A DNA stretch of 64,000 nucleotides from an uncultured bacterium (GTDB lineage Bacteria > Patescibacteriota > Minisyncoccia > Phycocordibacterales > CAIRYW01). Below are positions 1,492-57,599 of the stretch, piece by piece. The stretch lies in the NCBI GenBank assembly GCA_963766885.1, contig CAVYBO010000001.1, positions 68,352-132,351 on the forward strand, read 5' to 3'. The position numbers were made by a program, and so were the translations under genes. The notes under the pieces are model-generated. The model did not search any database. It worked only from the letters and a program-made list of their open reading frames with translations, and was not told where the DNA came from. The first letter of the stretch is position 1. The number at the start of each line of letters is the position of its first letter.

Positions 1492-2154
1492 ATGAAAAAA
1501 GGAAAATTTATTGTAATTGAAGGAACGGATGGATCGGGCAAGACTACTCAAACTGAAGCTTTGCTCAGACGATTAAAAAAAGATGGAATTTCTTCGGAAT
1601 CTATACGTTTTCCACAATACGAAAAAAATCTTTTTGGTTCGCTTATTCGCGAATGTTTGGACGGCAAGCACGGAGATTTTATTTCTGTTGATCCCAAAAT
1701 AGCATCTGTTTTGTATGCCTGCGATAGATTTGAAACCATTTCAAAAATAAAAAACTGGCTTAAGGAAGGCAAGGTTATTATTGCTGACAGATATGTATCC
1801 TCCAATCAAATTCATCAGGGAGGGAAAATAAAAGATGAAAAAGAGAGAGCAAAATTTTTGGATTGGCTCGGAGCGATGGAATACGATACTCTTGGAGTAA
1901 TTAAACCAGATACTGTGTTTTATCTGAGTATGCCTTATGAGATATCTTTGGAGTTGATTTCAAACAGGAAAGGTACAAAAGATGCTGCGGATTCAAATTT
2001 TGAGTATTTAAAAAATTCAAAAGAAGCTGGCGAGTATATGGTTTCAAGGGAAAATTTTTGGACAAAAATTGATTGCGCGCCAAAAGGTAAGCTACTTGCA
2101 AAAGAGGAAATTGCAGACTTAGTTTGGAAAAAGGTTTCTAGCGTGATTAAATGA
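1492..2154 (+). CDS. tmk: thymidylate kinase
   Basis: N-terminal P-loop FIVIEGTDGSGKTTQ and DRY motif ADRYVSS, 220 aa. Confidence 0.85.
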   Translation: MKKGKFIVIEGTDGSGKTTQTEALLRRLKKDGISSESIRFPQYEKNLFGSLIRECLDGKHGDFISVDPKIASVLYACDRFETISKIKNWLKEGKVIIADRYVSSNQIHQGGKIKDEKERAKFLDWLGAMEYDTLGVIKPDTVFYLSMPYEISLELISNRKGTKDAADSNFEYLKNSKEAGEYMVSRENFWTKIDCAPKGKLLAKEEIADLVWKKVSSVIK

Positions 2155-3860
2155 CTCTCATGAAAGAAGAAATAAGGAAACATATAAATACAGCAACAAA
2201 AGAGCTTTTTGAAAACAGCTCTGATTTTTCTATTGAATATCCAGAAAATAAGTTTGGAGATTATTCTGCAAATATTGCTTTTGCACTATCAAAAGATTTA
2301 AAAAAATCTCCAAAAGAAATCGCCGAAAAAATTACAGAATGTTTGAATAGTAAAAAGTTAAAAATTTTTGAAAAAATAGAAGTGGCTGGCGGAGGATTTA
2401 TAAACTTTTTTCTTTCAGATGAAATTGTTATAGAAAATTTGCTCAAGGTGAAAGAAGAAGATTTTGGCAAAGGAAACCCGCTTTCAGGCAAAGAGATTCT
2501 TTTTGAATATACAGATCCAAACGCTTTCAAGGCTTTTCATATCGGGCACCTGATGAGTAATGCAATTGGCGAGTCCATTTCAAGGCTTGCAGAATTTCAG
2601 GGAGCAGATGTCAAAAGAATCTGCTACAGCGGAGATGTTGGACTTCATGTGGCCAAAGCTATTTGGGGAATGATTCAGAATAAAAAAGGTTTTCCTCACG
2701 ATAATGATTCACTTGAAGACAAAATAAAATTTATTTCAGATGCATATGTTTTTGGCAACACTCAATATGAAGAGAGTGAATTTGCAAAAAAAGAAATTGA
2801 GATAATAAACAAAAAAGTTTTTGAAGGGAGTGATCGAGAGATTTTAATTTATTATGAAAAAGGAAAGCTTTGGAGTTTTGAGCATTTCAAAGAAATTTTT
2901 GAAAAGCTTGGAACAAAGTTTGATAAATTGATTTTGGAAAGCGAAGTTGCGCCCGTGGGGCAGAAGAAAATTGCAGAAAATATGGGAAAAGTTTTTGAAG
3001 AAAGTGACGGAGCGGTTGTCTTCAAAGGCGAGAAGCATAATTTGCATACACGTGTGTTTTTAACTTCTCAAGGTTTGCCAACTTACGAAGCTAAGGAACT
3101 TGGTCTTTTTGAGAAAAGGAAAGAATTGTTTCCAAAATATAGTTTGTCATTTGTTGTTACCGCAAACGAGCAGAAAGAATATATGAAAGTTGTTGTAGCG
3201 GCTGAAGAGGAAATCAATCCAGGCAGCGGAGAAAAATTCAGGCACATCACTCATGGACTGCTTCGTTTCAAAGATGGCAAGATGTCTTCCAGAATTGGGA
3301 ATGTTATTACAGGAGAATCTTTGATTTTTGAGGTTGAGGAATCAGTAAGAGAGAAAATAAAAGACAAAGAACTGGATGAAAAAGAGAAAAAAGAAATTTC
3401 TGAAAAAGTAGCAATTGCCGCAATCAAATATCAAATACTAAAACAGTCTCCCGGCAAAGATATTATTTTTGACAAAGAGAAGTCAATTTCTTTGGAGGGC
3501 GATTCTGGGCCATACATTTTGTATGCCTACGTGCGCGCAGTTTCTATTTTGAAAAAAGCTGAAGCAGAAAATTTAAAATCATCCAAAGCGCCAAAAAATT
3601 GGCAAGCTACAGCAATTGAGAAATTAATTCTAAGGTTTCCGGACATTGTAGTGGATTCTTTTGAAAACCTTGGACCGCAAAAATTGGCAGAATATTGCTT
3701 GGATTTGGCAGCAACTTTTAACGCTTTTTATGCAGAGACCCAGATTGTGAATTCTGAGGATTCAAATTCAGGATATAAAATAAGTATTGTGGAAAATTTT
3801 GCCAAAGTTTTAGAAAAAGGGCTCTGGCTCCTTGGAATCTCGACAGTTCAGAAAATGTAG
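2151..3860 (+). CDS. argS: arginyl-tRNA synthetase
   Basis: HIGH motif (FHIGHLMSNAIGE), class I layout, KMSSR motif and the typical C-terminal ...QKM ending. 569 aa. Confidence 0.9.
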   Translation: MTLMKEEIRKHINTATKELFENSSDFSIEYPENKFGDYSANIAFALSKDLKKSPKEIAEKITECLNSKKLKIFEKIEVAGGGFINFFLSDEIVIENLLKVKEEDFGKGNPLSGKEILFEYTDPNAFKAFHIGHLMSNAIGESISRLAEFQGADVKRICYSGDVGLHVAKAIWGMIQNKKGFPHDNDSLEDKIKFISDAYVFGNTQYEESEFAKKEIEIINKKVFEGSDREILIYYEKGKLWSFEHFKEIFEKLGTKFDKLILESEVAPVGQKKIAENMGKVFEESDGAVVFKGEKHNLHTRVFLTSQGLPTYEAKELGLFEKRKELFPKYSLSFVVTANEQKEYMKVVVAAEEEINPGSGEKFRHITHGLLRFKDGKMSSRIGNVITGESLIFEVEESVREKIKDKELDEKEKKEISEKVAIAAIKYQILKQSPGKDIIFDKEKSISLEGDSGPYILYAYVRAVSILKKAEAENLKSSKAPKNWQATAIEKLILRFPDIVVDSFENLGPQKLAEYCLDLAATFNAFYAETQIVNSEDSNSGYKISIVENFAKVLEKGLWLLGISTVQKM

Positions 3861-3873
3861 CTAGAATAATAAT

Positions 3874-4800
3874 ATGCAGGAAAACACAGCGGCGAAATAT
3901 ACAATCATTCTTTTCTATAAATACGAAGAGGTTCAAAACCCTGAGGGTTTTAGAGAGTGGAATAAACAAATCTGCGAAGAGCTTGGTTTGAAAGGCAGAA
4001 TAATTGTTGCCAGAGAAGGCATTAACGCAACAGTTGAAGGAAAAACCGAAGACATAGAAAAATACCTCACATCAATAAAAGAAATAGGACAAGAGAAAAA
4101 AGAATTCGGAGATTTTTCTGATATTGAAGTTAAAACAAGTGTAGGGCCAGGAAATAGTTTTCCAAAGCTCAAGGTCAAAGCAAGGCAAGAGATTGTGGCT
4201 TTGAGTTTGGGCACGGATGATTTTAGTCCGCGTCAAACTACCGGAGAATATTTGGCCCCGGAAGAATTAAAAAAATGGTACGAATCCGGCAAAGACTTTG
4301 CCATTGTGGATATGAGAAACGACTACGAATTTAAAGTAGGACATTTTAAAAATTCTATAAATCCGGATCTGGAAAACTTCAGAGATTTGTCAAAAAATAT
4401 TTTCAAACTTGAACCGCTAAAAGAAAAAACCGTTGTGACTGTTTGTACCGGAGGTGTCCGCTGTGAAAAGGCTTCTGGATTTTTGAAGAAAAAAGGATTC
4501 AAAGATGTCTATCAATTAAAGGGCGGAATGCATAAATATATGGAGCAATTTCCTGGCCAGGATTTTTTGGGAACGCTTTATACATTTGACGGCAGAGTGG
4601 TCATGGACTTTGGCGGAGAGAGGGAAGTTATCTCGCATTGCGAACTTTGCGGAGAGTCATCTGAAAATTATATAAACTGCGCATATCCGCTTTGCCACAA
4701 GCATTTTATTATCTGCCAAAAATGTTCGAAAGGTGAAGAAAATTTTTGTTCAAAAAATTGTGAAGAAAGGTATAAACAGAAATCTAAAGTTAGCATATAA
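3874..4800 (+). CDS. trhO: rhodanese-domain protein of the UPF0176/TrhO family (tRNA U34 hydroxylase-like) with a C-terminal Cys-rich tail
   Basis: N-terminus IILFYKYEEV...GRIIVAREGINATVEG and a rhodanese active-site loop CTGGVRCEKA. The C-terminal cluster HCELCGESS...CAYPLCHKHFIICQKCSKGEENFCSKNC is zinc-ribbon-like. Confidence 0.7.
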   Translation: MQENTAAKYTIILFYKYEEVQNPEGFREWNKQICEELGLKGRIIVAREGINATVEGKTEDIEKYLTSIKEIGQEKKEFGDFSDIEVKTSVGPGNSFPKLKVKARQEIVALSLGTDDFSPRQTTGEYLAPEELKKWYESGKDFAIVDMRNDYEFKVGHFKNSINPDLENFRDLSKNIFKLEPLKEKTVVTVCTGGVRCEKASGFLKKKGFKDVYQLKGGMHKYMEQFPGQDFLGTLYTFDGRVVMDFGGEREVISHCELCGESSENYINCAYPLCHKHFIICQKCSKGEENFCSKNCEERYKQKSKVSI

Positions 4801-4802
4801 AA

Positions 4803-4848
4803 AGTTACCCGGGCAATCGCAATGCGATTGCCCGGGTAATTTACTTTA
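4803..4848. terminator. perfect palindromic hairpin between convergent genes; bidirectional terminator
   Basis: TTACCCGGGCAATCGCA-ATG-CGATTGCCCGGGTAA gives a 17-bp perfect stem flanked by A/T runs. Confidence 0.6.
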
Positions 4849-5178
4849 CCGACATGCTGGTGCCGGCACCGTATGACCATAGCTGCCGTACGTGCCGCCG
4901 TCCTGTCCGTAGTTGGTTCCGTACGTGCCGCCGTAATTTGGCGTCCCGTACTGAGCAACATTGGACGGAAGGCAACGGACGGGAATTTCCTGTCCGTTGA
5001 TGATCTCGACTATTCGGACAATGCGACCGCTGCGGTCGCGGTAAATCCGGTAGTGAATTACCTCCTGCCTGCATCCCTGGGGAACTGGCTGGCAGTACTT
5101 GAGTTGGTTTTGGCAACGGTGACCACTGTTTAACGCCCCAGTGGTGAAGGCTAGCATTAGTAGAATGTACAGATTCAT
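4846..5178 (-). CDS. small secreted cysteine-rich, Gly/Tyr-rich protein (GC-rich segment)
   Basis: 110 aa. Signal-peptide-like N-terminus MNLYILLMLAFTTGALN, 6 Cys, and a C-terminal YG(T/S)YG repeat tail. Putative -10 TATAAT 7 nt before the ATG on the minus strand, suggesting a leaderless transcript. The local GC is clearly higher than the flanks, so frame assignment is uncertain. Confidence 0.4.
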   Translation of the reverse strand: MNLYILLMLAFTTGALNSGHRCQNQLKYCQPVPQGCRQEVIHYRIYRDRSGRIVRIVEIINGQEIPVRCLPSNVAQYGTPNYGGTYGTNYGQDGGTYGSYGHTVPAPACR

Positions 5179-5266
5179 TACTCGTATTATATCATACTTT
5201 ACTAAAAAATCAATAGCTGTAAAAATGCCATAAATAAAGGGAAAATGCTAAAATGCAAAGTACTTT

Positions 5267-8200
5267 ATGACAGAAGAAAATCAGCAAAAAAGCGAGCATG
5301 CAAAGCGCGAGGAAAGGATTCTTGAATTTTGGAATAAAAACCAGATTTTCCAAAAAACCTTGGATAAAAAACCTCAAAAAGGCAATTTTGTTTTTTATGA
5401 AGGCCCTCCTACGGCCAACGGCAAGCCCGGAATTCACCACCTTGAGGCCAGGGCTTTTAAGGATGTAATACCTCGATACAAAACAATGCAGGGATATTTT
5501 GTGCGCCGCAAAGCTGGTTGGGACACGCATGGATTGCCAGTTGAGATTGGAATTGAAAAAGAACTTGGCTTTAAATCCAAAAAAGAGATTGAAGAATACG
5601 GCATCGCAGCTTTCAATAAAAAATGCAAAGAAAGCGTTTTTAAGTACATTGATCTTTGGAGCAATTTTACCGATAGAATCGGCTATTGGCTCGACAAAAA
5701 AAATGCCTATTTTACTTTTGATTCAAATTATATTGAATCGCTTTGGAATATTTTCAAGAAAATTGATGATCAGAAACTTCTGTACAAAGATTACAAAGTT
5801 GTGCCATGGTGTCCGCGCTGCGGGACAACTTTATCGAGCCACGAGCTCGCTCAGGGCTACCAAGAAGACAAAGATTTGTCTGTGTATGTGAAGTTCAGAA
5901 TTGTAGAGCCTCAGAGCCACAGTCTTCGTTCGCCGTTGGCGAAATCGCCTGTGTCGTCTTCGGCTCTTACAGATTCCGAGGTTAGTGATAAGTCGAGGAT
6001 GTTACGCGCGACTTTTGCGGAGCAAAACGAAGCGCGTGACTCTGAGACTACCCAAACGTACTTACTCACATGGACAACAACACCGTGGACGCTTCCGGGA
6101 AACGTTGCTTTGGCTGTGGGAGAAAAGATTGATTATGTAAAAATAAAAATTGCCGAAGAGTTTTTGATTTTGGCTAAAGATCGACTTGCTGTTATCGTGG
6201 GCGAGTATGAAATTATTGAAGAAATAAAAGGCAAAGATTTAGTTGGTCTTGAATACGAGCCTGTTTATCCATTTATCACAGGCAACGAAAATTCTTTTAA
6301 AGTATACGCAGCTGATTTTGTAAACACAGAGGATGGCACAGGAATTGTGCATATTGCGCCGATGTATGGAGCAGACGACTTTGAACTTGGTAACAAAAAC
6401 AATCTTCCAAAACAGCATCTTGTAAACGAAGATGGAACTTTCAAAAGCGAAGTGGAATTTTTGGCTGGAAGGTTTGTCAAAGACGAAGAAACTGCGGTGG
6501 AAATAATCAAAGATTTGGCTCACAGAGGGTTGCTTTTCAAAAAAGAAAAGCATACTCACCAATATCCGCATTGCTGGAGATGCGGCACGCCGCTTATTTA
6601 TTTTGCCCGCGATTCTTGGTACATAAAAATGTCAGCGCTTCGGGAAAAATTGGTTTCTGAAAATGAAAAAATAAACTGGGAGCCGGAATATATCAAAGAA
6701 GGCAGGTTTGGCGAATGGCTCAGGGAAGTCAAAGACTGGGCAATTTCTCGCGAGCGATATTGGGGTACGCCGCTGCCCATCTGGTTTGGTGAAGATGGAG
6801 AAAAACTGGTAGTGGACTCGATTGAAACTCTTAAAAAATACACCAAAAAATCCGGCAATAAATATTTTTTAATGCGTCATGGAGAAGCGGAGCATAATAT
6901 TGAAGGTGTTTTTAGTTCTGACGAAGAAAAAGTTCATCACTTGACGGAAAATGGCACGAAACAAGCAGAAAAAACTGCCGGGAAATTAAAAAAAGAAAAA
7001 ATAGATTTGATAATTTATTCTCCTCTGACTCGCGCCAAAGAAACAATGGAAGAGGTGAAAAAAATTTTAGGAGAAAATATTTTGGCGGTTGAAGATAAGA
7101 GGGTAACCGAAGAAATATTTGCAGGGCTCTCTGGTATGAAAGAAAAAGAGTTCAAGAATCATTTTCCAACATTTGAAGACAGGCTTCACAATAGCGTGCA
7201 GAACAGCGAGACTCTTTTGGAAACAAAAAACAGAGTTGGAGAATTTTTGTATGATCTTGAAAATAAATATCAGAATAAAAATATACTGGTTGTTACTCAT
7301 GGCGGCCCTATATCGCTTATGTTTTGCGCATCAAATGGTCTTCTTGAAAAAGATATAAAAGAAAATTATAGCGGCAATTTCATAATGCCGGGTGAATATA
7401 CGGAATTAAAATTTACTCCGCTTCCGCACAATGAAAACTTTGAGCTTGATTTGCATAAGCCTTTTATTGATGAAATTGAACTTGTGTCAGATTCCGGAAA
7501 ACTTTTGAAGAGAATCAAAGAAGTTTGCGATGTGTGGTTTGATTCTGGATCAATGCCGTTTGCGCAGGATCATTATCCTTTTGAGAATAAAGAATTGATT
7601 GATAAAAATGGCGGATATCCAGCGGATTTTATTTCTGAAGCCATAGATCAAACCCGCGGATGGTTTTATACGCTTCATGCGGTTGGTGTGTTGACAGGCA
7701 AAGGCAATGCATACAAAAACGTGATTTGCTTGGGACATTTGCTCGATAAAAACGGCAAAAAGATGAGCAAGTCTTTGGGTAATGTGGTGGATCCGTGGGT
7801 AGAGATGGATAAATTCGGCGCGGATGCAATCAGGCTTTGGATGTATTCTGTAAATCAGCCAGGAGAGAGCAAAAATTATGATGAGAAGACAGTAGATGAG
7901 ATTATAAAAAAGAATTTCAATCTGCTCTCAAACGTTTACGCTTTTTATGAACTCTATAGAGATAAAGATTTGGAGACTAATGCTGCGCCAAAATCCAAGA
8001 ACGCTTTGGATATGTGGATTTTGGCGCGTTTGAATCAATTAATAAATGAGGGCACAAATTACCTTGAAGACTACAGACTGCTTCAGCCTGTGCGAATGCT
8101 CAAAGAATTTATCGAAGATCTTTCTACTTGGTATTTGAGAAGGTCTCGCGAGAAAATTCGCGAAGGCGACAAGAATGCAAAGCAGTGTTTGTATTTTGTG

Positions 8201-8794
8201 CTGAAAACTTTATCAAAATATATGGCGCCTTTTGCTCCGTTTTTTGCTGAAGATTTGTATCAGAAATTAAGATTAGAAGATGATTTTGAAAGCGTGCATT
8301 TGGAGAGTTGGCCCCACTTCGCCAAGGCTTCGCGGGGCGAGCCAGATAAAATTATTGAAGAAATGAAAAAGTTTAGAAGTGTAGTTTCTTTGGCGCTTGA
8401 AGCAAGACAAAAAGCTAATATAAAAGTACGTCAGCCGCTTGCAAAATTGTCTTTGAAAGAAAAAGTTTCTGATGAGTATGCGCAAATCATAAAAGATGAA
8501 ATAAACGTCAAAGAAGTCGTAATTGATTCTTCAATTCAAAATGAAATTGAACTCGATACAAATATCACAGATGAGCTGAAAGAAGAGGGAATGGCTCGGG
8601 AAATAATTCGCGCGATTCAGGATGCAAGAAAAGAAAAAAATCTTTCTCCAAACGACACTGTAGCGATAAATATTTCTGCCCCGGAAGAAACAATTATGCT
8701 CGTAAAAAAATATCAAAAGGAAATCCAAAAACCAACATCTGTTGAAATAAAAGAATTGAAAAATTCAGTCGAATTAAAAATTGAAATTCTGTAG
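5267..8794 (+). CDS. ileS: isoleucyl-tRNA synthetase with two in-frame insertions, one a complete histidine phosphatase (PGAM-like) domain
   Basis: HHLEARAFKDVIPRY (HIGH-like), WTTTPWTLPGN (CP1), WAISRERYWGTPLPIW, DVWFDSGSMPF and KMSKSLGNVVDP. 1175 aa, longer than typical. Confidence 0.9.
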   Translation: MTEENQQKSEHAKREERILEFWNKNQIFQKTLDKKPQKGNFVFYEGPPTANGKPGIHHLEARAFKDVIPRYKTMQGYFVRRKAGWDTHGLPVEIGIEKELGFKSKKEIEEYGIAAFNKKCKESVFKYIDLWSNFTDRIGYWLDKKNAYFTFDSNYIESLWNIFKKIDDQKLLYKDYKVVPWCPRCGTTLSSHELAQGYQEDKDLSVYVKFRIVEPQSHSLRSPLAKSPVSSSALTDSEVSDKSRMLRATFAEQNEARDSETTQTYLLTWTTTPWTLPGNVALAVGEKIDYVKIKIAEEFLILAKDRLAVIVGEYEIIEEIKGKDLVGLEYEPVYPFITGNENSFKVYAADFVNTEDGTGIVHIAPMYGADDFELGNKNNLPKQHLVNEDGTFKSEVEFLAGRFVKDEETAVEIIKDLAHRGLLFKKEKHTHQYPHCWRCGTPLIYFARDSWYIKMSALREKLVSENEKINWEPEYIKEGRFGEWLREVKDWAISRERYWGTPLPIWFGEDGEKLVVDSIETLKKYTKKSGNKYFLMRHGEAEHNIEGVFSSDEEKVHHLTENGTKQAEKTAGKLKKEKIDLIIYSPLTRAKETMEEVKKILGENILAVEDKRVTEEIFAGLSGMKEKEFKNHFPTFEDRLHNSVQNSETLLETKNRVGEFLYDLENKYQNKNILVVTHGGPISLMFCASNGLLEKDIKENYSGNFIMPGEYTELKFTPLPHNENFELDLHKPFIDEIELVSDSGKLLKRIKEVCDVWFDSGSMPFAQDHYPFENKELIDKNGGYPADFISEAIDQTRGWFYTLHAVGVLTGKGNAYKNVICLGHLLDKNGKKMSKSLGNVVDPWVEMDKFGADAIRLWMYSVNQPGESKNYDEKTVDEIIKKNFNLLSNVYAFYELYRDKDLETNAAPKSKNALDMWILARLNQLINEGTNYLEDYRLLQPVRMLKEFIEDLSTWYLRRSREKIREGDKNAKQCLYFVLKTLSKYMAPFAPFFAEDLYQKLRLEDDFESVHLESWPHFAKASRGEPDKIIEEMKKFRSVVSLALEARQKANIKVRQPLAKLSLKEKVSDEYAQIIKDEINVKEVVIDSSIQNEIELDTNITDELKEEGMAREIIRAIQDARKEKNLSPNDTVAINISAPEETIMLVKKYQKEIQKPTSVEIKELKNSVELKIEIL

Positions 8795-8820
8795 AATTGT
8801 AGAGTGTTATAATTAGTTGT

Positions 8821-9378
8821 ATGAAAAAACGTGTTGTTATTGTTCATGGATATGGCGGAGCACCGGAAGGATGCTGGAAACCTTGGCTTAAAAAAGAATT
8901 AGAAGCACAGGGGTTTGATGTAAGTGTTCCTTTAATGCCAGATACTGATTATCCAAAACTTTCTCCTTGGCTTGCAAAATTAAATGAAGTTATTGGCAAT
9001 CCAGATGAAAATCTGTTTTTGATTGGACATAGTCTTGGAACGCCAACTATTTTGCAATACCTTTCAAGGTTATCAGAAGGCGTGAAAATCGGCGGAACGA
9101 TTTTTGTGGCAGGATTACCATCGTTTCCAGAAATAAAAGACGACGTGGGAGAATTTTTTGCTGAAGAAAAAATTAAACAAGCTAAAAATCATTGCGATAA
9201 ATTTGCCGTTATATATTCAAATGGAGATGAACATGTGTCGATAGAAAGAGCAAAACAATTTTCTCAGAATTTAGAAGCGCAAGAAATATTTATTCAAGAT
9301 AAAGGGCATTTCTCAGACGACGACCAGGTATTTGAACTTCCTGAAGCTCTTGAAGTAATTCTTGGCATGTCCAAATGA
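8821..9378 (+). CDS. alpha/beta serine hydrolase (YdeN/RBBP9-like)
   Basis: VVIVHGYGGAP...LIGHSLGT contains a GxSxG nucleophile elbow. 185 aa. Confidence 0.6.
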   Translation: MKKRVVIVHGYGGAPEGCWKPWLKKELEAQGFDVSVPLMPDTDYPKLSPWLAKLNEVIGNPDENLFLIGHSLGTPTILQYLSRLSEGVKIGGTIFVAGLPSFPEIKDDVGEFFAEEKIKQAKNHCDKFAVIYSNGDEHVSIERAKQFSQNLEAQEIFIQDKGHFSDDDQVFELPEALEVILGMSK

Positions 9379-9980
9379 GCTATACTAAATACACCACAGA
9401 TGCATTTGTAATTGCTTCTAAAGACACTGGAGAAGCAGATAAAATTTTTAAGCTTTACACCAAAGATTTTGGAATGGTTTTTGGAATTGCCAAAAGCGTG
9501 CGGCTTCTGAAATCAAAACTGAAAAATCATTTGAGTGCTGGAAATAGAATAAAAGTGTCTTTAGTGCGAGCTAAAGATTTTTGGAGAATTGTTGAAGCTG
9601 AAAGGATGAGCAAAGGAGAACAAGAATTTTCTCTTCGGGTTATGCCTGATGGCTCTCATAGAAAATTCTTGTTCTCCTTTTCTAGGATTCTTGCTGTTTT
9701 GTCGCGTCTTGTTCACGGCGAAGAGCAGAACGAAACAGTTTTTAATGTTCTTGTAGAAGCACAAAAGGCTTTGGAAGAAAGCGCGCCGGAGCACTATGAA
9801 GCGATTGAGATTATGGCTTCTTCCAAAATAATTGCAGCTTTAGGATACGGAAGCAACGAGGCGCTTTTTGAAAAGATAATCGCATCAAATTTTGGAGAAG
9901 AGGAAGCTATCGGAGTGATAAAAGAAAAGCGACAGATTATATCGATAATAAACAAAACTCTGGCCCATACCCAACTTTGA
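9375..9980 (+). CDS. recO: DNA repair protein RecO-like (short form, no zinc finger)
   Basis: The N-terminal OB-fold pattern TDAFVIASKDTGEADKIFKLYTKDFGMVFGIAKSVR resembles the RecO N-domain, and the C-terminal ALGYG matches a RecO motif. 201 aa. Confidence 0.5.
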   Translation: MSYTKYTTDAFVIASKDTGEADKIFKLYTKDFGMVFGIAKSVRLLKSKLKNHLSAGNRIKVSLVRAKDFWRIVEAERMSKGEQEFSLRVMPDGSHRKFLFSFSRILAVLSRLVHGEEQNETVFNVLVEAQKALEESAPEHYEAIEIMASSKIIAALGYGSNEALFEKIIASNFGEEEAIGVIKEKRQIISIINKTLAHTQL

Positions 9981-10025
9981 TTACATAGCTTCAATTCTCT
10001 TTTTTATATATAATTTGTAGGTTAA

Positions 10026-11975
10026 ATGTCTGAATCAGATGACAGCAGAATAGAAAGATTAAGAAAGGCGCTTTATTCAAAGAGCACCAATATAGAAGTT
10101 CCGCATCTTCTTGATCTCAAAAAACACAAAACTGAAGTTTCTACAGACTGGCAAAAAGAAGAGCCAGAAAAAACCGCGCCTATAGATATTAATTCAGAAT
10201 ATGATGTGGCCCGTGTCAAAAAATCACGCTTGATAAGAATCATGCTTGAGGGCGCGGCTGTATTTTTTCTGCTCTCTATCGCTTTTGCGGCTTTTGTTTT
10301 GTTTAAAGGCGTCAATGTAATTTCTCCAAATAAAATTGAACTTAATATTGTTGCTCCAGCCTCAATTCCTTCGGGTCAAGCCGCTTCTTTGGATATTTCT
10401 TTAACAAACCAGAACAGCAGCTCCCTTCAATTGGTTGATGTGATATTAAATTATCCTCAAGGTACAAGAAGTGCCGATGATCAAAGTCAAGAACTTACCC
10501 AAGATAGAGTATCTTTTGATTCGATTGCTCCAGGACAGACCGTGGAGGGCGCTTCGCGGGCGATTTTTTTTGGAGAAGATGGCACGACAGAAAAAATAAA
10601 TATTGAAATTGATTATCGTGTTTTTGGTTCTAACACAGTCTTTACCAAAAATTCCGAATATGATGTTGCCATCGGCACAGCGGCGCTTTCTTTGACTTTG
10701 GATTCTGACAGCCAAGTGACATCAGGTCAAAATATAAATATGACACTGACAGCCAAATCAAACTCGTCAAGTGTCGTCAAGGATGTCCTGCTCCAGGCCG
10801 CGTTTCCTTTTGGATTTACACTTTCCAGTTCAACGCCGAGTGTTTTGCCGCAAAACAATAACACTTGGGATTTGGGCGACATTGAGCCGGGTGGGGAACG
10901 GACCGTAAAAATTTCCGGTGTTGTTACTGGAGAACAGGACGAAGTAAGATTTTTCAGGTTTACGCTGGGGCTCGGATCTTCTGATAATCAGAATTCGCTT
11001 CAGACTCTTGTGGCATCTGCAGAAAATCAGCTTGTGGTTCAAAAGCCGTTTATTGGCACTGATGTTGTTCTAAACGGTCAGTCCTCAGACGGTTATATCA
11101 TGACGATGGGCGGACAGATTAACGGTACAATAAATTGGCAAAATAATCTGGATGTTCCTGTAAGTAATTTGCAGATTTTGACAACGGTCAAAGGAGATGT
11201 TTTGGATCCAAATAGTTTTTCTGCAGCTGATGGAGGTATAGTGCGTTCAGATGCCGGTACTTTTTCATGGAGTCAGTTTGAGGAGGATGCGCTTGCTAAT
11301 GTGACACCGGGGCAGAACGGGGCTTTGAATTTTTCATTGTCTACGTTGCCGATTTCTTCAAGCGCGCTTTCAAATGTCAGGAATCCGTCTGTTTCCATAA
11401 ATATAAACATCAAAGGCAGAATAATTTCAGACGCAAACTTGCCTGAGGATATAAATTCAGCGTTTTCCAAAAACATTCCAGTCAATACTTATGCAACCGT
11501 TGACGCGCAGGTGGTCCATTCAATCGGGCCTTTTACAAACACAGGGGCATTGCCTCCAAAAGTTAATCAGCCGACGGAATACACAATCATATGGACAGCA
11601 TCAAATATGTTTAATGATTTAGACAACGCTAAAGTCACTGCGACTTTGCCGAATTTTGTCACTTGGACTGGGGTTACTTCGCCTGCTGCTGAACAAATAT
11701 CTTTTGATCCAACGTCAAGACAAATAACTTGGAATTTGGGCACTCTTCTGGCTACTGGCGGCTCTGCTAGCGGACTGAGGCAAGTAGATTTTCAAATTGC
11801 GTTTACTCCAAGCAATAATCAAGCTGGTCAGAATCCTTTGCTTATGAATGACGCGGTTCTTTCTGGCACTGATTCGTTCACCAATCAAAATCTTTCTTTC
11901 ACTTCCGGAGACACGAGTTTGTCTATGCCTACAGATCCGGCCTTCAATAATGGTGATGATGTTGTCACGAATTAA
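10026..11975 (+). CDS. membrane-anchored protein with a large S/T/N-rich extracytoplasmic repeat domain
   Basis: Cytoplasmic N-terminus, a single TM segment (LIRIMLEGAAVFFLLSIAFAAFVLF), then ~570 aa of beta-rich repeats reminiscent of DUF11/CARDB. Confidence 0.5.
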   Translation: MSESDDSRIERLRKALYSKSTNIEVPHLLDLKKHKTEVSTDWQKEEPEKTAPIDINSEYDVARVKKSRLIRIMLEGAAVFFLLSIAFAAFVLFKGVNVISPNKIELNIVAPASIPSGQAASLDISLTNQNSSSLQLVDVILNYPQGTRSADDQSQELTQDRVSFDSIAPGQTVEGASRAIFFGEDGTTEKINIEIDYRVFGSNTVFTKNSEYDVAIGTAALSLTLDSDSQVTSGQNINMTLTAKSNSSSVVKDVLLQAAFPFGFTLSSSTPSVLPQNNNTWDLGDIEPGGERTVKISGVVTGEQDEVRFFRFTLGLGSSDNQNSLQTLVASAENQLVVQKPFIGTDVVLNGQSSDGYIMTMGGQINGTINWQNNLDVPVSNLQILTTVKGDVLDPNSFSAADGGIVRSDAGTFSWSQFEEDALANVTPGQNGALNFSLSTLPISSSALSNVRNPSVSININIKGRIISDANLPEDINSAFSKNIPVNTYATVDAQVVHSIGPFTNTGALPPKVNQPTEYTIIWTASNMFNDLDNAKVTATLPNFVTWTGVTSPAAEQISFDPTSRQITWNLGTLLATGGSASGLRQVDFQIAFTPSNNQAGQNPLLMNDAVLSGTDSFTNQNLSFTSGDTSLSMPTDPAFNNGDDVVTN

Positions 11976-12015
11976 ATAAAGCGTAATTTATATTTTTATG
12001 CTATAAATTCTATCT

Positions 12016-13440
12016 ATGACAAAAGATCCAAACAATAGCGCAAATAACAGCGACATCAGCAAAATGGAAAAAATAATCAGCCTTTGCAAAAGGAGGGGAT
12101 TTGTTTATCAAGGCTCGGAAATTTACGGAGGTCTTGGGGGTGTATATGATTACGGACACTATGGAGCAATGCTAAAAAACAATATACGTGATTCTTGGAT
12201 AAAACATATGATTCAGTTGCGCGACGATGTTTACCTTTTAGATAGCGCTATTTTTATGCATCCAACCACATGGGTGGCTTCAGGTCATGTGGCAAGTTTT
12301 GATGATCCGCAAATCGAATGTAGAAATTGTCATAATCGCATGAGAGCAGACCATATACTTGAAAGTTTTGGTATTTCAGCGGACAAAGCTACAATCGAAT
12401 TTATAAATGAAGAACTTGATAAATTAAGAAAAGAAAAAAAACTGAAATGTACTAATTGTGGTTCCTCAGATATAACCCAAGCAAAAAAATTTTCACTAAT
12501 GGTTAAATCAAATTTTGGATCACCAACGGATGCATTAACAGAGGATAATGTTGTTTATCTTCGCCCAGAGACATGTGGTGGCATATATTTGCAATACAAA
12601 AACACGGTTGATTCACTTCATCCAAAGTTACCTTTCGGTATTGCTCAGGTAGGCAAGGCTTTTAGGAATGAAATCGCAGCAAGACAGTTTATTTTCCGAA
12701 CGAGGGAATTTGAACAAATGGAAATGCAGTATTTTCTATATCCTTCAATGATGAAAGAAAATTATGATATGTGGAAGAAAATCAGGTGGGATTGGTATCT
12801 AAAATATGAAATTCCGGAGAGTAAGATTCGTTGGTATAAACATGAAAAATTGGCCCACTATGCTTCCGAAGCGTATGACATCGAATATAATTTTGAAACA
12901 CTTGGAGGATTTAAAGAAGTTGAAGGCATTCATGCCAGAGGAGATTGGGATTTATCACAGCATTCAAAATTTTCTGGTGTTGACCTGAGTTACTTTGATG
13001 AAGAAAAGAAAGAGAGATTTATTCCTCATATCATGGAAACATCTGTTGGTTTGGCTCGTCTTCTGCTTATGTTCATTGATAATGCGTATACAGAAGATGA
13101 ATTAGGCGGAGAAAAAAGAATTCTTCTTAAACTTCCTTATGAGCTTGCTCCGATTAAGGTTGCCGTTTTTCCACTGTTAAAAAATAAACCGGAATTAGTT
13201 AAAAAAGCTAAGGAAATTCATGAGATGCTTAGGTCCCATATAATGTGTGAGTTTGACGACAACGGCAACATCGGCAAAAGATATCGAAGACAAGATGAAA
13301 TCGGTACGCCGTTTTGCATCACAGTTGATTTCGACACTATGGAAAAAGATGCGGGTGTGACAATTCGCGATAGAGACACAGGCACGCAGGAGAGAATAAA
13401 AATTTCTGAAATTTTGGAATTTATAAAATCAAAAATCTAG
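12016..13440 (+). CDS. glyQS: glycyl-tRNA synthetase (class II, alpha2 type)
   Basis: FVYQGSEIYGGLGGVYDYGHYG, class II motifs FRNEIAARQFIFRTREFEQMEMQYF, and an anticodon-binding C-terminus. 474 aa. Confidence 0.9.
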   Translation: MTKDPNNSANNSDISKMEKIISLCKRRGFVYQGSEIYGGLGGVYDYGHYGAMLKNNIRDSWIKHMIQLRDDVYLLDSAIFMHPTTWVASGHVASFDDPQIECRNCHNRMRADHILESFGISADKATIEFINEELDKLRKEKKLKCTNCGSSDITQAKKFSLMVKSNFGSPTDALTEDNVVYLRPETCGGIYLQYKNTVDSLHPKLPFGIAQVGKAFRNEIAARQFIFRTREFEQMEMQYFLYPSMMKENYDMWKKIRWDWYLKYEIPESKIRWYKHEKLAHYASEAYDIEYNFETLGGFKEVEGIHARGDWDLSQHSKFSGVDLSYFDEEKKERFIPHIMETSVGLARLLLMFIDNAYTEDELGGEKRILLKLPYELAPIKVAVFPLLKNKPELVKKAKEIHEMLRSHIMCEFDDNGNIGKRYRRQDEIGTPFCITVDFDTMEKDAGVTIRDRDTGTQERIKISEILEFIKSKI

Positions 13441-13489
13441 TTTTCTTTTTGATTGACGTAATATATTTTGTGTTATAAAGTCATTTTTA

Positions 13490-13813
13490 ATGAAGACGAT
13501 CTTTTCGACTGACCCAGAAGGTGCTCAAAGATTTCTGGACACAATCAAGTTCTCCGAACTGTTTTCTCCTCGCACAAGAGCTGGGACGGATGACGTTTTG
13601 CCCATTGATCAATATGAAATCAAACCGGGAAATAATAAGACCGAAGTTTGGGTTCAGGCAGGTATTCTGATTGCACAGGATTTTTGCCAAAGACTTATCG
13701 AAGAATGTGGTCTGACTCACAAAGACACTACGGAGATGAATATCATGACCCAAGCTGTCAACTTCGATACGCCCTTCGGTTTTACTTTTCATGTCGTCGT
13801 CGTGTTTGCCTAA
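13490..13813 (+). CDS. hypothetical protein in a GC-rich segment
   Basis: 107-aa ORF followed by a hairpin terminator (GCAGACGGCCTTACCGCTTTCTGC plus a T-run) that supports plus-strand transcription. The minus-strand ORF 13487..13792 is the antisense alternative. Confidence 0.3.
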   Translation: MKTIFSTDPEGAQRFLDTIKFSELFSPRTRAGTDDVLPIDQYEIKPGNNKTEVWVQAGILIAQDFCQRLIEECGLTHKDTTEMNIMTQAVNFDTPFGFTFHVVVVFA

Positions 13814-13876
13814 GCAGACGGCCTTACCGCTTTCTGCTATTTTTATTATTAATTTTTTGTTAAGATTGCTTTTAAT

Positions 13877-15148
13877 ATGAAATTCAATAAAAAGACTTTA
13901 AAAAACGGCCTAAGGATTATTACAGTACCGATGAAGGATACAGAAACAGCCACTGTCATGGTGCTTGTTGAGGCAGGTAGTAATTATGAAGATAAGAAAA
14001 TCAACGGTCTTTCGCATTTTCTTGAGCATATGTGTTTCAAAGGCACCGAGAAACGGCCGTCTTCAGCGCAGATAAATTACGAGCTTGATGCGCTTGGCTC
14101 GCGTTCAAACGCTTTTACCTCAAACGAATACACAGGCTACTACGCCAAGGCGCATTACGGCAAGCTCTCGCAAGTTTTGGACATTGTTTCTGATGTTTAT
14201 TTAAATTCCACTTTTCCGGAAGAAGAAATGGAAAAGGAAAAAGGCGTAATCATTGAAGAGATAAATATGTACGAAGATATGCCGCAGAGCAAAGTCGGCG
14301 ACGTGTATATGGAATTGCTTTACGGCTCGCAGCCAGCTGGAATGCCTGTGATTGGTCCAAAAGAAAATATCCAAAAAATGAAAAGGGAAGATTTTTTGAA
14401 ATACAGGCAAGCGCATTACGTGCCAAGCGCCACGGCTGTGATTGTTTCTGGCAGAATGAATGAGAAAAAAGTAATTAAAGAAGTTGAAAATATTTTTAGC
14501 AAATTGCCAAAGGCTAAAAAGACAGGCAAAGAAACTCCAAAAGAGACTCAAAAAACTCCAGCTGTTAAATTGTTTTTCAAAGACACAGATCAGTCGCACT
14601 TAGTTTTGGGTTTTAGATCTTTTGATAGGCATGATAAGCGAAATACAGCACTGTCTTTGCTTTCAACAATTCTCGGAGGCGGAATGAGCTCCAGGCTTTT
14701 CCAAAAAATGCGAGAAGAGCTTGGCATCTGCTACTACGTTCATTCAGGCAAAGACGCTTTTACTACTCACGGCAATTTTTATATTTCTGCAGGAGTTTCC
14801 AATGCTCGTATCTTTGAGGCTATCAAAGGTATTTTTGAAGAAGTTAAAAAAATCAGAGACGGAGAAGTCTCAGACAAAGAACTTCGCAAAGCCAAGGATT
14901 ACAGGATAGGGAATATTTTCTTGGGACTTGAGTCTTCGGACGATTTTGCTAATTTTTATGGAGGACAGGAAATTTTGCGCGATAAGAAAGTTTTGACTGC
15001 AGATGAAATAGCAAAGATGGTTGAAAAAGTCACGGCCAAAGACATTCAAAAAGTAGCCAAAGAAATATTCAAAAACCAAACTATGAATTTAGCTATTGTT
15101 GGGCCGTTCAAAGATGGGGGAGAGTTCAGTAAAATCCTAAAAATATAG
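13877..15148 (+). CDS. M16 family zinc metallopeptidase (insulinase-like)
   Basis: Inverted zinc motif HFLEHMCFKGT (HxxEH). 423 aa. Confidence 0.8.
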   Translation: MKFNKKTLKNGLRIITVPMKDTETATVMVLVEAGSNYEDKKINGLSHFLEHMCFKGTEKRPSSAQINYELDALGSRSNAFTSNEYTGYYAKAHYGKLSQVLDIVSDVYLNSTFPEEEMEKEKGVIIEEINMYEDMPQSKVGDVYMELLYGSQPAGMPVIGPKENIQKMKREDFLKYRQAHYVPSATAVIVSGRMNEKKVIKEVENIFSKLPKAKKTGKETPKETQKTPAVKLFFKDTDQSHLVLGFRSFDRHDKRNTALSLLSTILGGGMSSRLFQKMREELGICYYVHSGKDAFTTHGNFYISAGVSNARIFEAIKGIFEEVKKIRDGEVSDKELRKAKDYRIGNIFLGLESSDDFANFYGGQEILRDKKVLTADEIAKMVEKVTAKDIQKVAKEIFKNQTMNLAIVGPFKDGGEFSKILKI

Positions 15149-15180
15149 AGGTGTAAAATCCTCAAAATAGTGATATATTA

Positions 15181-16233
15181 ATGCCAATGGAAGATAGGAA
15201 TATCACAGTCAATATCCACTCCGGCGCAATATTTAAAACTCTTGCAATCATTGCTTTGGCGGCAGCGATTTACTTTTTGAAAGATGTTGTATTGGTTGTT
15301 TTGACTGCTGTTGTCATATCTTCCGCCGTTGAGCCTGGAGTAATGTGGTTTGAGAAAAAAAGTATTTCAAGATTAATCGGTGTTTTGGCTGTTTACTTCT
15401 TTTTGGTTTTTGTAGTTGCTATTTTTTTCTTGTCGGTGGTACCGATATTTTTGAGCGATCTCTCTGGCATTATTTCAAATATTCCCCAGTATTTAAATCA
15501 AATCTCAAGCTACATTCCGCTTCTTGATGCTAGTTTGCTTCAAGGGTATGTGCCGATTTTACAAAACATTGCCTCTCAAGTTTCAAATGCGGGAATCGTG
15601 GACAAAATCACTTCTTCAACAAATTTTTTGGCCAATGTCCAAAATATAATCAACTCTTCGATTAGCGCAATTTTGATTTTCGTCTTATCGTTTTATTTTT
15701 CCGTTACCAAAAACGGCGTGGATAATTTTCTCCGAATAGTTACTCCTCTCAAACACGAAGCATATGTCATTGACCTGTGGCGCAGGACAAAACAAAAAAT
15801 CGGCATTTGGATGCAGGGGCAGTTGGTGCTTTGCTTGATGGTTGGCGTGATGGTTTATATTCCGCTTGCGATTTTGGGTATTAGGCATGTTTTGCTTTTG
15901 GCCGTGGCTGCGTCAGTCCTTGAAATTATTCCGGTTTTTGGTCCGACGCTTTTTGCAATTCCCGGAATCCTCTTTACTCTGCTTGATAAAGGCTTGGTCT
16001 TGGCTCTTGTGGTAACAGGAATTTACATCATCATCCAACAATTTGAAAACTATCTTTTGTATCCTGCAGTGGTCAAAAAAATAGTCGGCATTTCTCCGCT
16101 CATTGTAATTTTGGCTCTTGCTGTCGGCTACGAGCTGGTTGGATTTTTGGGGCTGATTCTCGCCATGCCGGTGTCGGTATTTATTGTTGAATATACTGAG
16201 GATCTGAACAAAAAGAGGAATAAGAATTCTTAA
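15181..16233 (+). CDS. AI-2E family transporter (UPF0118/PerM-like)
   Basis: Polytopic membrane protein of about 8 TM segments with the typical AI-2E length and hydropathy. C-terminus LAMPVSVFIVE. Confidence 0.7.
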   Translation: MPMEDRNITVNIHSGAIFKTLAIIALAAAIYFLKDVVLVVLTAVVISSAVEPGVMWFEKKSISRLIGVLAVYFFLVFVVAIFFLSVVPIFLSDLSGIISNIPQYLNQISSYIPLLDASLLQGYVPILQNIASQVSNAGIVDKITSSTNFLANVQNIINSSISAILIFVLSFYFSVTKNGVDNFLRIVTPLKHEAYVIDLWRRTKQKIGIWMQGQLVLCLMVGVMVYIPLAILGIRHVLLLAVAASVLEIIPVFGPTLFAIPGILFTLLDKGLVLALVVTGIYIIIQQFENYLLYPAVVKKIVGISPLIVILALAVGYELVGFLGLILAMPVSVFIVEYTEDLNKKRNKNS

Positions 16234-16244
16234 TAAAGGCAAGG

Positions 16245-17693
16245 ATGGAAAAATATTTTTATATCACCACAACTATTCCGTATGTGAATGCCAAGCCGCA
16301 TATTGGTTTTGCTTTGGAAATTGTTCAGGCTGATGCTTTGGCAAGAGCGCATACACTTCAGGGAGAGGAAGTATTTTTTAACACAGGTACAGATGAACAC
16401 GGCCAAAAAATATTTGATGCTGCCAAAAAGGAAGGTAAAGAGCCACAGGAATTTACTGATTTTTATGCGGAAAAGTTCAAATCCTTAAAAGAACTCTTAA
16501 ATATTTACGATGATATACATTTTATTCGGACAACAGATAAACATCATATTAAAGCAGCGGAGGAGTTTTGGAAAAGATGCAATGATTCTGGAGACATCTA
16601 CAAAGCAAAATATAAAATCAAATACTGCATAGGTTGCGAACTTGAAAAAACAGATTCAGAACTTGTTGACGGCAAGTGTCCTTTGCATCCAAATCTTGTC
16701 CTTGAAATCAGGGAAGAAGAAAATTATTTTTTCAGATATTCAAAATACCAGGACGCGCTTTTGAAACTTTACAAAACAAATCCGGAGCTTGTGGTTCCAG
16801 ATTTTCGTTTTAATGAAATCAAAAAATTTGTAGAAGGCGGCTTGCAGGACTTTAGTATTTCTCGTCCAGCTGCCAAAATGTCATGGGGAATTCCTGTGCC
16901 GGGAGACAACACACACGTGATGTATGTGTGGTTTGATGCGCTTGTAAATTATATTTCTACGCTTGGCTGGCCCGAAGATGAAAAGCAGCACCCAGAAAAT
17001 TTCCAAAAATTTTGGACAGGAAAAAACAATATTCAACTTGCCGGCAAGGATCAAATCAGAATGCAAGCTGGAATGTGGCAGGCGATGCTAATGTCGGCCA
17101 AGCTTCCACAAACTAAAACAATTTTTATCCACGGATTTATCAATTCCAGCGGACAAAAAATGAGCAAGTCTTTGGGCAACGTGATTGATCCAGAGCAGAT
17201 TGTTTCCGAATATGGCACCGATGCGCTTCGATATTTTCTTCTCCGCGAGATTCATCCTTTTGAGGATAGTGATTTTACCTTTGAGAGATTCAAAGAAAGC
17301 TATAATGCTAATTTGGCAAATGGATTGGGAAATCTAGTCTCCAGAATTATGAAAATGGCAGAAAGTAATTTGGAAAAGCCAGTTGAAATTCCAGAGAAAT
17401 CTCTAACAGAAGAATATTTTAAATTTTTTGAAAATTTTGAATTAAATAAAGCAATGGATTACATTTGGCAGAAAATTTCCGAACTGGATGAAACAATTCA
17501 GCAAAAAGAACCATTTAAACTTGTGAAAGCAAATAAAGAGGAGGGAATTAAAGTGATTGAAGATTTAGTTATTAAACTTAATTCAATTAGGCGAATGCTA
17601 AATTCTGTAATGCCGGAAACTTCTGCAAAAATAAAAAATCTTATAAAAGATAACAAATCTCCAGAAGCGCCGCTATTTTTGAGGAAGGAATAG
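16245..17693 (+). CDS. metG: methionyl-tRNA synthetase (short form)
   Basis: TTTIPYVNAKPHIGFA (HIGH-like) and KMSKSLGNVIDP. 482 aa. Confidence 0.9.
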   Translation: MEKYFYITTTIPYVNAKPHIGFALEIVQADALARAHTLQGEEVFFNTGTDEHGQKIFDAAKKEGKEPQEFTDFYAEKFKSLKELLNIYDDIHFIRTTDKHHIKAAEEFWKRCNDSGDIYKAKYKIKYCIGCELEKTDSELVDGKCPLHPNLVLEIREEENYFFRYSKYQDALLKLYKTNPELVVPDFRFNEIKKFVEGGLQDFSISRPAAKMSWGIPVPGDNTHVMYVWFDALVNYISTLGWPEDEKQHPENFQKFWTGKNNIQLAGKDQIRMQAGMWQAMLMSAKLPQTKTIFIHGFINSSGQKMSKSLGNVIDPEQIVSEYGTDALRYFLLREIHPFEDSDFTFERFKESYNANLANGLGNLVSRIMKMAESNLEKPVEIPEKSLTEEYFKFFENFELNKAMDYIWQKISELDETIQQKEPFKLVKANKEEGIKVIEDLVIKLNSIRRMLNSVMPETSAKIKNLIKDNKSPEAPLFLRKE

Positions 17694-40077: not shown

Positions 40078-40123
<46 letters not shown>

Positions 40124-42264: not shown

Positions 42265-42593
42265 GAAATTCCTTGTCAGGTAAGTTCTGACGCGCACGAA
42301 TGGTGTAACGACTGGAGAACTGTCTCGAGGACTTGCTCGGTGAAAATACAATACCGGTGAAGATGCCGGTTACCTGCAGTTAGACGAAAAGACCCCAGAA
42401 GCTTTACTGCAACTTGATATTGCGCTTACGCGTGTGCTGCGTAGCATAGGTGGGAGAGGTTATACGTATGATTTTGGTTGTACGGTACTCAACAGTGAAA
42501 TACCACTCTGTATTTGTGTAAGTGCTAACATTACCGGACAAAACCGGTGAAGGACAGTATCTGGTGGGCAGTTTTAGTGGGGCGCTATCCTTC

Positions 42594-56066: not shown

Positions 56067-57599
<1,533 letters not shown>

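Follow-up and report, generated by a model that had tools for sequence, protein, structure and literature searches.

Here we describe an isoleucyl-tRNA synthetase (IleRS) gene, ileS, whose product carries an embedded histidine phosphatase, in a 64,000-nucleotide (nt) stretch of DNA (hereafter the window) from an uncultured bacterium of the Patescibacteriota (GenBank assembly GCA_963766885.1, contig CAVYBO010000001.1, forward-strand positions 68,352 to 132,351). The gene is a single uninterrupted open reading frame (ORF) at 5267-8794 on the plus strand and encodes 1175 amino acids (aa), as a preliminary description of the same DNA had reported. From comparison with relatives, in which the phosphatase is found either within IleRS or as a separate gene directly before ileS, we regard the domain as probably an accessory phosphatase dedicated to class Ia synthetases, relocated into IleRS from the adjoining gene.

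A histidine phosphatase domain within IleRS

Pfam places tRNA-synt_1 on the 1175-aa protein in two stretches with His_Phos_1 between them, followed by Anticodon_1 and DUF5915 at the C-terminal end. The His_Phos_1 match (PF00300, aa 534-693) has an E value of 3.4e-29 and 102.3 bits on the full protein, and the insert alone scores 106.8 bits (gathering score 21.7). The preliminary description, written from the sequence alone, had proposed an in-frame branch 1 histidine phosphatase domain inside IleS and had named a His_Phos_1 hidden Markov model (HMM) search as a check. The catalytic RHG, SPLTR and THGG motifs are present as it quoted them, and the HMM match, the conservation of the catalytic residues and the predicted fold bear the proposal out. 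Its 'GES' motif did not stand: the window insert reads NSE at aa 646-648, and orthologues have GGES.

The boundaries of the insert were set by alignment to IleRS2 of Priestia megaterium (PmIleRS2; 8c8w), the closest solved structure. Residue 526 of the query pairs with residue 478 of 8c8w and residue 721 with residue 480, so that the insert comprises aa 527-720 (nt 6845-7426), or 194 aa where the 8c8w chain has one residue; of the earlier interval, 6850-7440, the insert itself was upheld and the ends were revised. The segment from WGxPxP to DVWFDS is accordingly long, with ~253 aa in the window protein versus 52-58 aa in insert-less relatives. The insert emerges from the tip of the second Zn-knuckle hairpin, which belongs to the final connective-peptide segment and lies ~35 residues before the DVWFDSG strand; the GC content of the insert (35-39%) is the same as that of its flanks. 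The insertion site is a connective-peptide hairpin (CP2 or CP3, by nomenclature) in the Rossmann fold and not the active-site core itself, which refines the earlier placement in the 'catalytic core' of IleRS. Because the offset between WGxPxP and RHG is uniform (32-37 residues in 117/117 insert-bearing sequences), we take this site to be fixed.

Across 120 orthologues, R537, H538, N544, G563, S585, R589, T593 and H678 are invariant, and E615 (119/120), E648 (118/120) and R656 (118/120) are nearly so; the catalytic Arg and His, whose possible loss had been raised as an objection to the domain, are thus retained throughout. Mean column conservation in these orthologues is 0.55 for the phosphatase domain versus 0.80 for the IleRS core. 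The catalytic residue set is kept equally in 164 embedded single-copy domains and 110 free-standing relatives, and in the window protein it aligns to the catalytic positions of PspA.

This conservation bears on whether the domain could be a catalytically dead structural module that stands in for a lost Zn knuckle and stabilises the connective peptide. The window protein has lost all four Cys ligands of the knuckle, as was stated previously, and ligands are also missing in ~43% of orthologues. However, both Cys pairs persist alongside the insert in 63/117 insert-bearing orthologues, so their loss does not extend to the architecture as a whole. Moreover, the full catalytic set, which a scaffold would not need, is invariant in hundreds of sequences and retained in every tandem copy (see below), and we find a dead module hard to credit.

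Modelled on its own with AlphaFold2 (AF2), the domain reaches a predicted local distance difference test (pLDDT) score of 94.9 and a predicted template modelling (pTM) score of 0.92. A Foldseek search recovers 4ij5, 1h2e and 6nru (E=5e-14, template modelling score ~0.7), all consistent with a PGAM-type (phosphoglycerate mutase) alpha/beta fold. The closest folds are small-molecule phosphomonoesterases of ~200 aa, namely PspA, PhoE, CobC, GpgP and a riboflavin-pathway phosphatase, at a root-mean-square deviation (RMSD) of 2.3-3.0 Å; true phosphoglycerate mutases are ~40 residues longer and superpose on the domain at 4-8 Å. The term 'PGAM-like' used previously therefore describes the fold, and the domain is of the short phosphatase type rather than a mutase.

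None of the named families tried could be assigned. Models of cofactor-dependent phosphoglycerate mutase (dPGM) give 77-82 bits (dPGM_arch, cut-off 225), 36-41 bits (PRK01295, cut-off 316) and 33-39 bits (PRK14115, cut-off 305), and the specific phosphatase models give 48-52 bits (SixA, cut-off 74.5), 74-79 bits (PspA, cut-off 350) and 68-73 bits (CobC, cut-off 162.9). Judged by sequence and modelled structure, the domain is a short phosphatase-type member of branch 1 that looks catalytically intact, lies outside every characterised subfamily and is not a mutase. While the PGAM fold and the weak dPGM_arch matches might suggest that it is the cell's own cofactor-dependent phosphoglycerate mutase fused to IleRS, we consider this very improbable: scores stay far under the equivalog cut-offs (77 versus 225; 33-36 versus 305-316), a length of ~190 aa and the RMSD values point to the short phosphatases, and relatives with a form embedded in valyl-tRNA synthetase (ValRS) carry two genes for cofactor-independent phosphoglycerate mutase (iPGM) beside valS. 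The presence of iPGM genes in these ValRS-lineage genomes argues that the domain is not the glycolytic mutase.

The IleRS scaffold

NCBIfam identifies the product of the ORF as isoleucine--tRNA ligase (TIGR00392, 862 bits, cut-off 621). By its best PDB and fold matches, which are to IleRS2 (PmIleRS2 structures in the case of Foldseek), and by its Anticodon_1 and DUF5915 domains, it is a type-2 IleRS. Isoleucine-specific aminoacylation of tRNA-Ile is inferred from homology, and a tRNA-Ile(GAT) gene is present in the window at 58346-58421. The IleRS portion looks functional, with GIHH and KMSKS, the editing-site motifs (WTTTPWT at aa 269-275 is invariant among the aligned orthologues) and the first Zn site (WCPRCG and CWRC) all retained. 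AF2 models the full protein with pLDDT 90 and pTM 0.82, and pLDDT is 91-97 over the insert and both junctions.

The GIHH form of the class I signature occurs in 120 sequences of the insert-bearing clade and is shared by some insert-less relatives; in IleRS2, a GXHH motif confers hyper-resistance to mupirocin (PMC10485003). Two more specific assignments of the window protein were rejected. The models for the mupirocin-resistance enzymes MupA and MupB reach 780 and 761 bits where 1900 is required, reflecting ordinary IleRS2 homology only, and ileS_w_GNAT (NF040702) gives 333 bits against 1999, with no GNAT domain found by Pfam in the protein. A second, smaller insert at aa 214-262, which the preliminary description had not mentioned, is not present in solved IleRS; it is gapped in 91% of orthologues, has pLDDT <50 and is located at the strand entering the editing domain.

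The architecture recurs across many species

We compared the window protein with the 120 closest IleRS clusters from a collection of 5.8 billion proteins. These clusters, which come from NCBI, ENA, JGI and Logan assemblies, share 55-68% identity with it, and PF00300 is present in 120/120 of them. When one genome per GTDB species was scanned by pattern, at least 398 species proved to have a relative of the insert, under names including Zambryskibacteria, Nomurabacteria, Adlerbacteria, Taylorbacteria, Kaiserbacteria, Paceibacterota and Minisyncoccia, and the domain was inside the IleS ORF in 80/80 GTDB loci sampled. Taxon labels were taken from the records of metagenome-assembled genomes (MAGs), and some are clearly generic or mis-binned.

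The unusual architecture taken by itself could raise the suspicion of an artefact, either a chimeric contig, as considered in the preliminary description, or a false joining of two genes. Misassembly can be excluded, since hundreds of independent assemblies contain the insert: the same junctions are found in the 120 clusters from independent assemblies and in the 80/80 GTDB loci. In addition, the ORF is continuous with uniform base composition, and AF2 is confident over both junctions, leaving an artefact with next to no plausibility.

Public annotation largely passes over this architecture. Insert-bearing IleRS (for example, P0006, P0008 and P0039) are named just 'class I tRNA ligase family protein' by NCBI, presumably because the insert disrupts rule-based naming and thereby leaves essential genes under-annotated in hundreds of MAGs. 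One JGI entry is labelled 'valyl-tRNA synthetase/broad specificity phosphatase PhoE'.

A free-standing phosphatase gene beside ileS

Relatives of the insert were collected by an exhaustive phmmer search against 1.84 billion representatives, which gave 751 matches at <1e-10. A query of the 5.8-billion-protein clusters with the insert alone, by word index, was too insensitive, returning only four distant free-standing matches and missing every embedded copy. Short free-standing matches were vetted, and one (P0135) proved to be a fragment on a 636-nt contig. Alongside IleRS proteins and fragments, what emerged was a free-standing family of ~190 aa that starts with Met and has in common with the insert an N-x-Y-F-x-x-RHG beginning, in which N531 and Y533 of the window insert are invariant.

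Among 80 metagenome loci with the phosphatase family, 55 have it free-standing and 25 embedded. The free-standing gene is closely tied to the synthetases: an insert-less ileS (923-1005 aa) follows directly downstream in 42/47 cases with a called downstream ORF, separated by gaps of -26 to +70 nt with frequent overlaps of 4-10 nt, and argS lies upstream in 40/49 cases with a called upstream ORF. The embedded versions likewise have argS upstream, in 15/23 metagenome loci and 48/62 GTDB loci. At the level of the locus, free and embedded copies occur together in none of the loci examined, and the 64-kb window contains no second His_Phos_1 ORF. The search for orthologues with and without the insert that had been suggested earlier thus recovered both states, with insert-less enzymes encoded beside a free phosphatase gene.

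Pairwise distances of the IleRS core and of the phosphatase, taken across free and embedded states, are correlated (Spearman 0.43, a value reached by 0/500 permutations), indicating that the two diverged together whichever state they were in. We read adjacency and fusion as a Rosetta-stone pattern that points to a functional partnership, probably a physical one.

A neighbour-joining (NJ) tree places, outside the enzymes with the insert, a deep-branching group of IleRS that lack it and have the free gene upstream in every case. We take adjacency of the two genes to be the ancestral state and embedding to have arisen from it. Further insert-less groups are interspersed among insert-bearing IleRS (6-10 groups over bootstraps of the IleRS-core NJ tree), and an NJ tree of the phosphatase domain does not separate embedded from free copies. 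The state may have changed more than once; NJ on these data is unreliable for counting events.

Insertions in other synthetases and at other sites

The association extends beyond IleRS. PF00300 is found in ~40/120 of the closest ValRS clusters, with Magasanikbacteria and Moranbacteria labels, and in ValRS the phosphatase has been inserted at three different sites. One ValRS (P0212) carries it after DTWFSSGLW...GWP, and another (P0131) has four copies, one after QWF and three after WGHRIPVWY, the site equivalent to that in IleRS. Several IleRS contain two tandem copies, and the range across the family is 2-4 copies. In a single example, an arginyl-tRNA synthetase (ArgRS) of 720 aa (L112:3408-5570) has the phosphatase fused at its C-terminus, with ileS beginning 5 nt later; this could be a true fusion or the result of stop-codon loss between neighbouring genes.

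In the ValRS lineage, the neighbourhood of genes with and without the insert is iPGM-iPGM...valS-tyrS-argS. On Magasanikbacteria-type contigs (L164-L169), we observed two tandem iPGM genes and enolase just upstream of valS-tyrS-argS, and the valS genes of close relatives there differ only by the ~190-aa phosphatase insert.

Rare IleRS variants combine the phosphatase with other domains. One (P0259) has NUDIX together with His_Phos_1, with NUDIX exactly at the site of aa 214-262 of the window protein; one (P0165) has a Y1 (IS200-like) transposase domain, His_Phos_1 and GNAT, the last placed after the phosphatase; and one (P0238) has His_Phos_1 and a sub-threshold P-loop/AAA_18-like domain after DVWFDSG. 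When the NUDIX, GNAT and P-loop domains were sub-typed with NCBIfam, they yielded generic superfamily matches only. Together with the ValRS cases, these variants mark three hot spots for insertion within the connective-peptide/Rossmann region of class Ia synthetases of bacteria of the candidate phyla radiation (CPR).

Partner or passenger

If the domain is an accessory phosphatase, its origin would be a dedicated phosphatase gene, which in related Parcubacteria is a separate ORF between argS and ileS and often translationally coupled. In the clade of the window, the phosphatase would have been relocated into the IleRS polypeptide, so that it is made 1:1 with the synthetase and the two are held together.

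The main rival is a passenger model, in which a general metabolic or broad-specificity phosphatase of the PhoE/PspA kind was caught by permissive loops, and fusion does nothing more than secure its expression, synthetase genes in streamlined genomes being constitutively active at a high level. Several results favour this model and weigh against a dedicated partner. The closest solved relatives of the domain are metabolic small-molecule phosphatases with no tie to translation, and the domain reaches no NCBIfam equivalog cut-off, so that neither substrate nor activity can be inferred from family membership. Among ValRS relatives 81-88% identical and with identical synteny, the insert may be present or absent, and no free phosphatase copy is adjacent; aminoacylation in this lineage thus does not require the insert, which could be a passenger. 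Class Ia connective-peptide loops are tolerant of inserts, the same clade hosting unrelated NUDIX, GNAT, P-loop-like and Y1-transposase-like domains at these hot spots in IleRS, and the ArgRS fusion can be explained by stop-codon loss between neighbours. Basic charge was tried as a proxy for RNA binding and rejected as evidence: a first comparison gave an isoelectric point of 9.8 for free versus 6.0 for embedded copies, a difference that same-lineage controls (+10.3 versus +8.2 per 100 aa, p=0.08) traced mostly to the proteome composition of the lineage.

Against a passenger stands a linkage to ileS that is too specific and too recurrent, with 42/47 free-standing genes directly before it, as well as the mutual exclusivity of free and embedded forms, the co-phylogeny with IleRS, grafting at four or more independent sites in IleRS and ValRS, and the retention of the architecture with invariant catalytic residues in at least 398 species. 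While we consider a passenger rather unlikely for these reasons, it is the alternative that we take most seriously, and a dedicated accessory phosphatase is the reading that we favour.

Possible substrates

The domain is inferred to act as a phosphomonoesterase on something present at the synthetase. In the proposed mechanism, a phosphomonoester would be held by R537, R589 and N544 and attacked by H538, with E615 protonating the leaving group and H678 stabilising the phospho-histidine intermediate. This phosphomonoester would be some ligand that is encountered at class Ia synthetases. One tentative candidate is an adenine nucleotide that arises as a by-product or serves as a signal, and a 3'-phosphorylated or pyrophosphorylated tRNA end that blocks charging is another of similar standing; a phospho-residue on the synthetase itself ranks below both and seems doubtful.

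The last of these candidates corresponds to a built-in protein phosphatase that would reverse inhibitory phosphorylation of the synthetase (for example, of Ser by toxin kinases of the HipA/HipT type), acting in cis as an antidote or as a regulator. Protein phosphatases such as SixA, PGAM5 and Sts-1 belong to the histidine phosphatase superfamily, and class I aminoacyl-tRNA synthetases (aaRS) are the class targeted by Hip kinases. The fusion partners IleRS, ValRS and ArgRS are all class I, tandem amplification would fit an arms race, and the N-terminal half of the domain gives a sub-threshold SixA match (48-52 bits). That match is, however, under the cut-off of 74.5, the fold neighbours are small-molecule enzymes and PADLOC gives no defence-related match, and we judge a protein phosphatase improbable.

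More speculatively, Parcubacteria and their relatives could use a dedicated histidine phosphatase to clear a phosphate-bearing block to charging on IleRS, ValRS and ArgRS, as a layer of quality control or counter-defence. Such a block might be a phosphorylated synthetase or a CCA end that toxin or defence enzymes have left 3'-phosphorylated or pyrophosphorylated, and the rare variants with both NUDIX and phosphatase would then be a two-step module for pyrophosphate removal. A search with PADLOC defence models returned no match.

Comparison with known systems

PmIleRS2 (8c8u/8c8v/8c8w; PMC10485003) shares with the window protein its domain order, the Anticodon_1 and DUF5915 C-terminus and a GXHH-type motif. 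It differs in having an intact CxxC...CxxC knuckle of ~55 residues where the window protein has the 194-aa phosphatase, and the 49-aa disordered insert at aa 214-262 is found in the window protein only. The short phosphatases PspA (4ij5), PhoE/YhfR (1h2e), CobC (6nru), GpgP Rv2419c (4qih) and the riboflavin-pathway HFP (9mmh) resemble the insert in fold, length (~190-210 aa) and R-H / R / E / H constellation. Their identity to it is, however, 18-29%, the N-x-Y before RHG is distinctive to the aaRS-linked subfamily, and none of these enzymes is known to be fused with an aaRS or to have an aaRS gene as its neighbour. The ileS_w_GNAT family (NF040702) is similar in having a foreign catalytic domain within IleRS and is recognised only at the level of annotation; its domain is an acetyltransferase and is placed in the N-terminal/CP1 region.

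Known accessory modules of aaRS comprise editing hydrolases, tRNA-binding appendages and signalling domains. CP1 editing domains, YbaK/ProX, AlaX and DTD are hydrolytic modules that are free or synthetase-fused depending on lineage; they hydrolyse aminoacyl esters and have folds unrelated to His_Phos_1. We know of no role for phosphomonoesterase chemistry in aminoacylation. The preliminary description was aware of no aaRS carrying a PGAM-fold phosphatase, and in the full-text literature we likewise found no account of any aaRS with a histidine phosphatase inside it or next to it. This appears to be a new case of an aaRS with an accessory domain, in which the sequences are public and the biology undescribed.

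If the coupling is functional, charging would involve a phosphorylated species not yet recognised, whether an intermediate, a product of damage, an inhibitor or a mark with a regulatory role, at least in ultra-small host-dependent bacteria. In evolutionary terms, the family is a clear instance of a gene moving from beside its partner gene into the middle of it. It also maps three hot spots at which class Ia cores naturally tolerate insertions, which is useful for engineering, and gives a basis for correcting the annotation of proteins now called 'class I tRNA ligase family protein'.

Features of the window

The coordinates of the gene, its motifs and domains and the conserved upstream neighbour are given in Table 1.

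Table 1 Features of ileS and its conserved neighbour in the window.
Feature	Position (nt)	Strand	Evidence
ileS, type-2 IleRS with embedded histidine phosphatase, 1175 aa	5267..8794	+	NCBIfam, Pfam, 8c8w alignment, AF2
Class I signature, non-canonical GIHH, aa 55-58	5429..5440	+	Sequence; kept clade-wide
Disordered S/A/E-rich lineage-specific insert, aa 214-262, 49 aa	5906..6052	+	Absent from 8c8w; insertion hot spot A
WAISRERYWGTPLPIW motif and N-terminal arm of degenerate Zn-knuckle hairpin, aa 491-526	6737..6844	+	Cys ligands replaced by G508, G511
His_Phos_1 (PGAM-fold) phosphatase domain, aa 527-720, including conserved KKSGNKY entry linker	6845..7426	+	Pfam; 8c8w alignment
RHG, aa 537-539, with R537 and predicted nucleophilic H538	6875..6883	+	Invariant in 120/120 orthologues and 164/164 embedded single-copy domains
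SPLTR, aa 585-589, with predicted phosphate-binding R589	7019..7033	+	S585, R589 invariant in 120/120
E615, predicted general acid	7109..7111	+	119/120; aligns with PspA catalytic Glu region
H678, predicted second catalytic His, in THGG (aa 677-680)	7298..7300	+	Invariant in 120/120
C-terminal hairpin arm (HNENFELDLHKPFID...VSDSGK, Cys ligands lost) and DVWFDSG strand re-entering Rossmann fold	7427..7549	+	Alignment
KMSKS, aa 832-836, intact	7760..7774	+	Invariant in orthologue alignment
argS, 569 aa, conserved upstream neighbour of phosphatase/ileS unit	2151..3860	+	Arg_tRNA_synt_N, tRNA-synt_1d, DALR_1 (Pfam)

Synthetase genes are clustered at 2151-17693, where argS and ileS are accompanied by a class II aaRS with an HGTP anticodon domain (12016-13440) and a short MetRS-like gene (16245-17693, 482 aa). 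Between argS and ileS lie a TrhO-like rhodanese/UPF0176 gene (3874-4800), a perfect GC-rich terminator-like hairpin (4806-4838) and a small minus-strand ORF (4846-5178, 110 aa, ~56% GC). The product of this ORF has a signal-peptide-like N-terminus and a Gly/Tyr-rich tail and gives no Pfam match. The GC-rich gap upstream of ileS was considered as a leader RNA and rejected, with no match in Rfam; it consists of the hairpin and the minus-strand ORF. Because these two elements separate the rhodanese gene from ileS, ileS of the window is not expected to be co-transcribed with argS.

The rRNA genes of the window are unlinked. The 23S rRNA gene (39550-43485) exceeds the Rfam model by ~1 kb and has a LAGLIDADG endonuclease ORF (41666-42154) inside it; the DNA just past its annotated 3' end matches a group I intron (43610-43838) and has another LAGLIDADG ORF (44072-44563), followed downstream by tRNA-Lys (45093) and 5S rRNA (45439). 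The rRNA locus thus appears rich in introns, as is typical of CPR, and the true 3' end of the 23S gene may be further downstream than annotated. The 16S rRNA gene (56060-57603) lies ~12 kb downstream of the 23S gene, the reverse of the usual order, and is followed by the tRNA-Ile(GAT) gene. With its unlinked rRNA genes, enlarged 23S gene with a LAGLIDADG ORF and group I intron, the window looks CPR-like.

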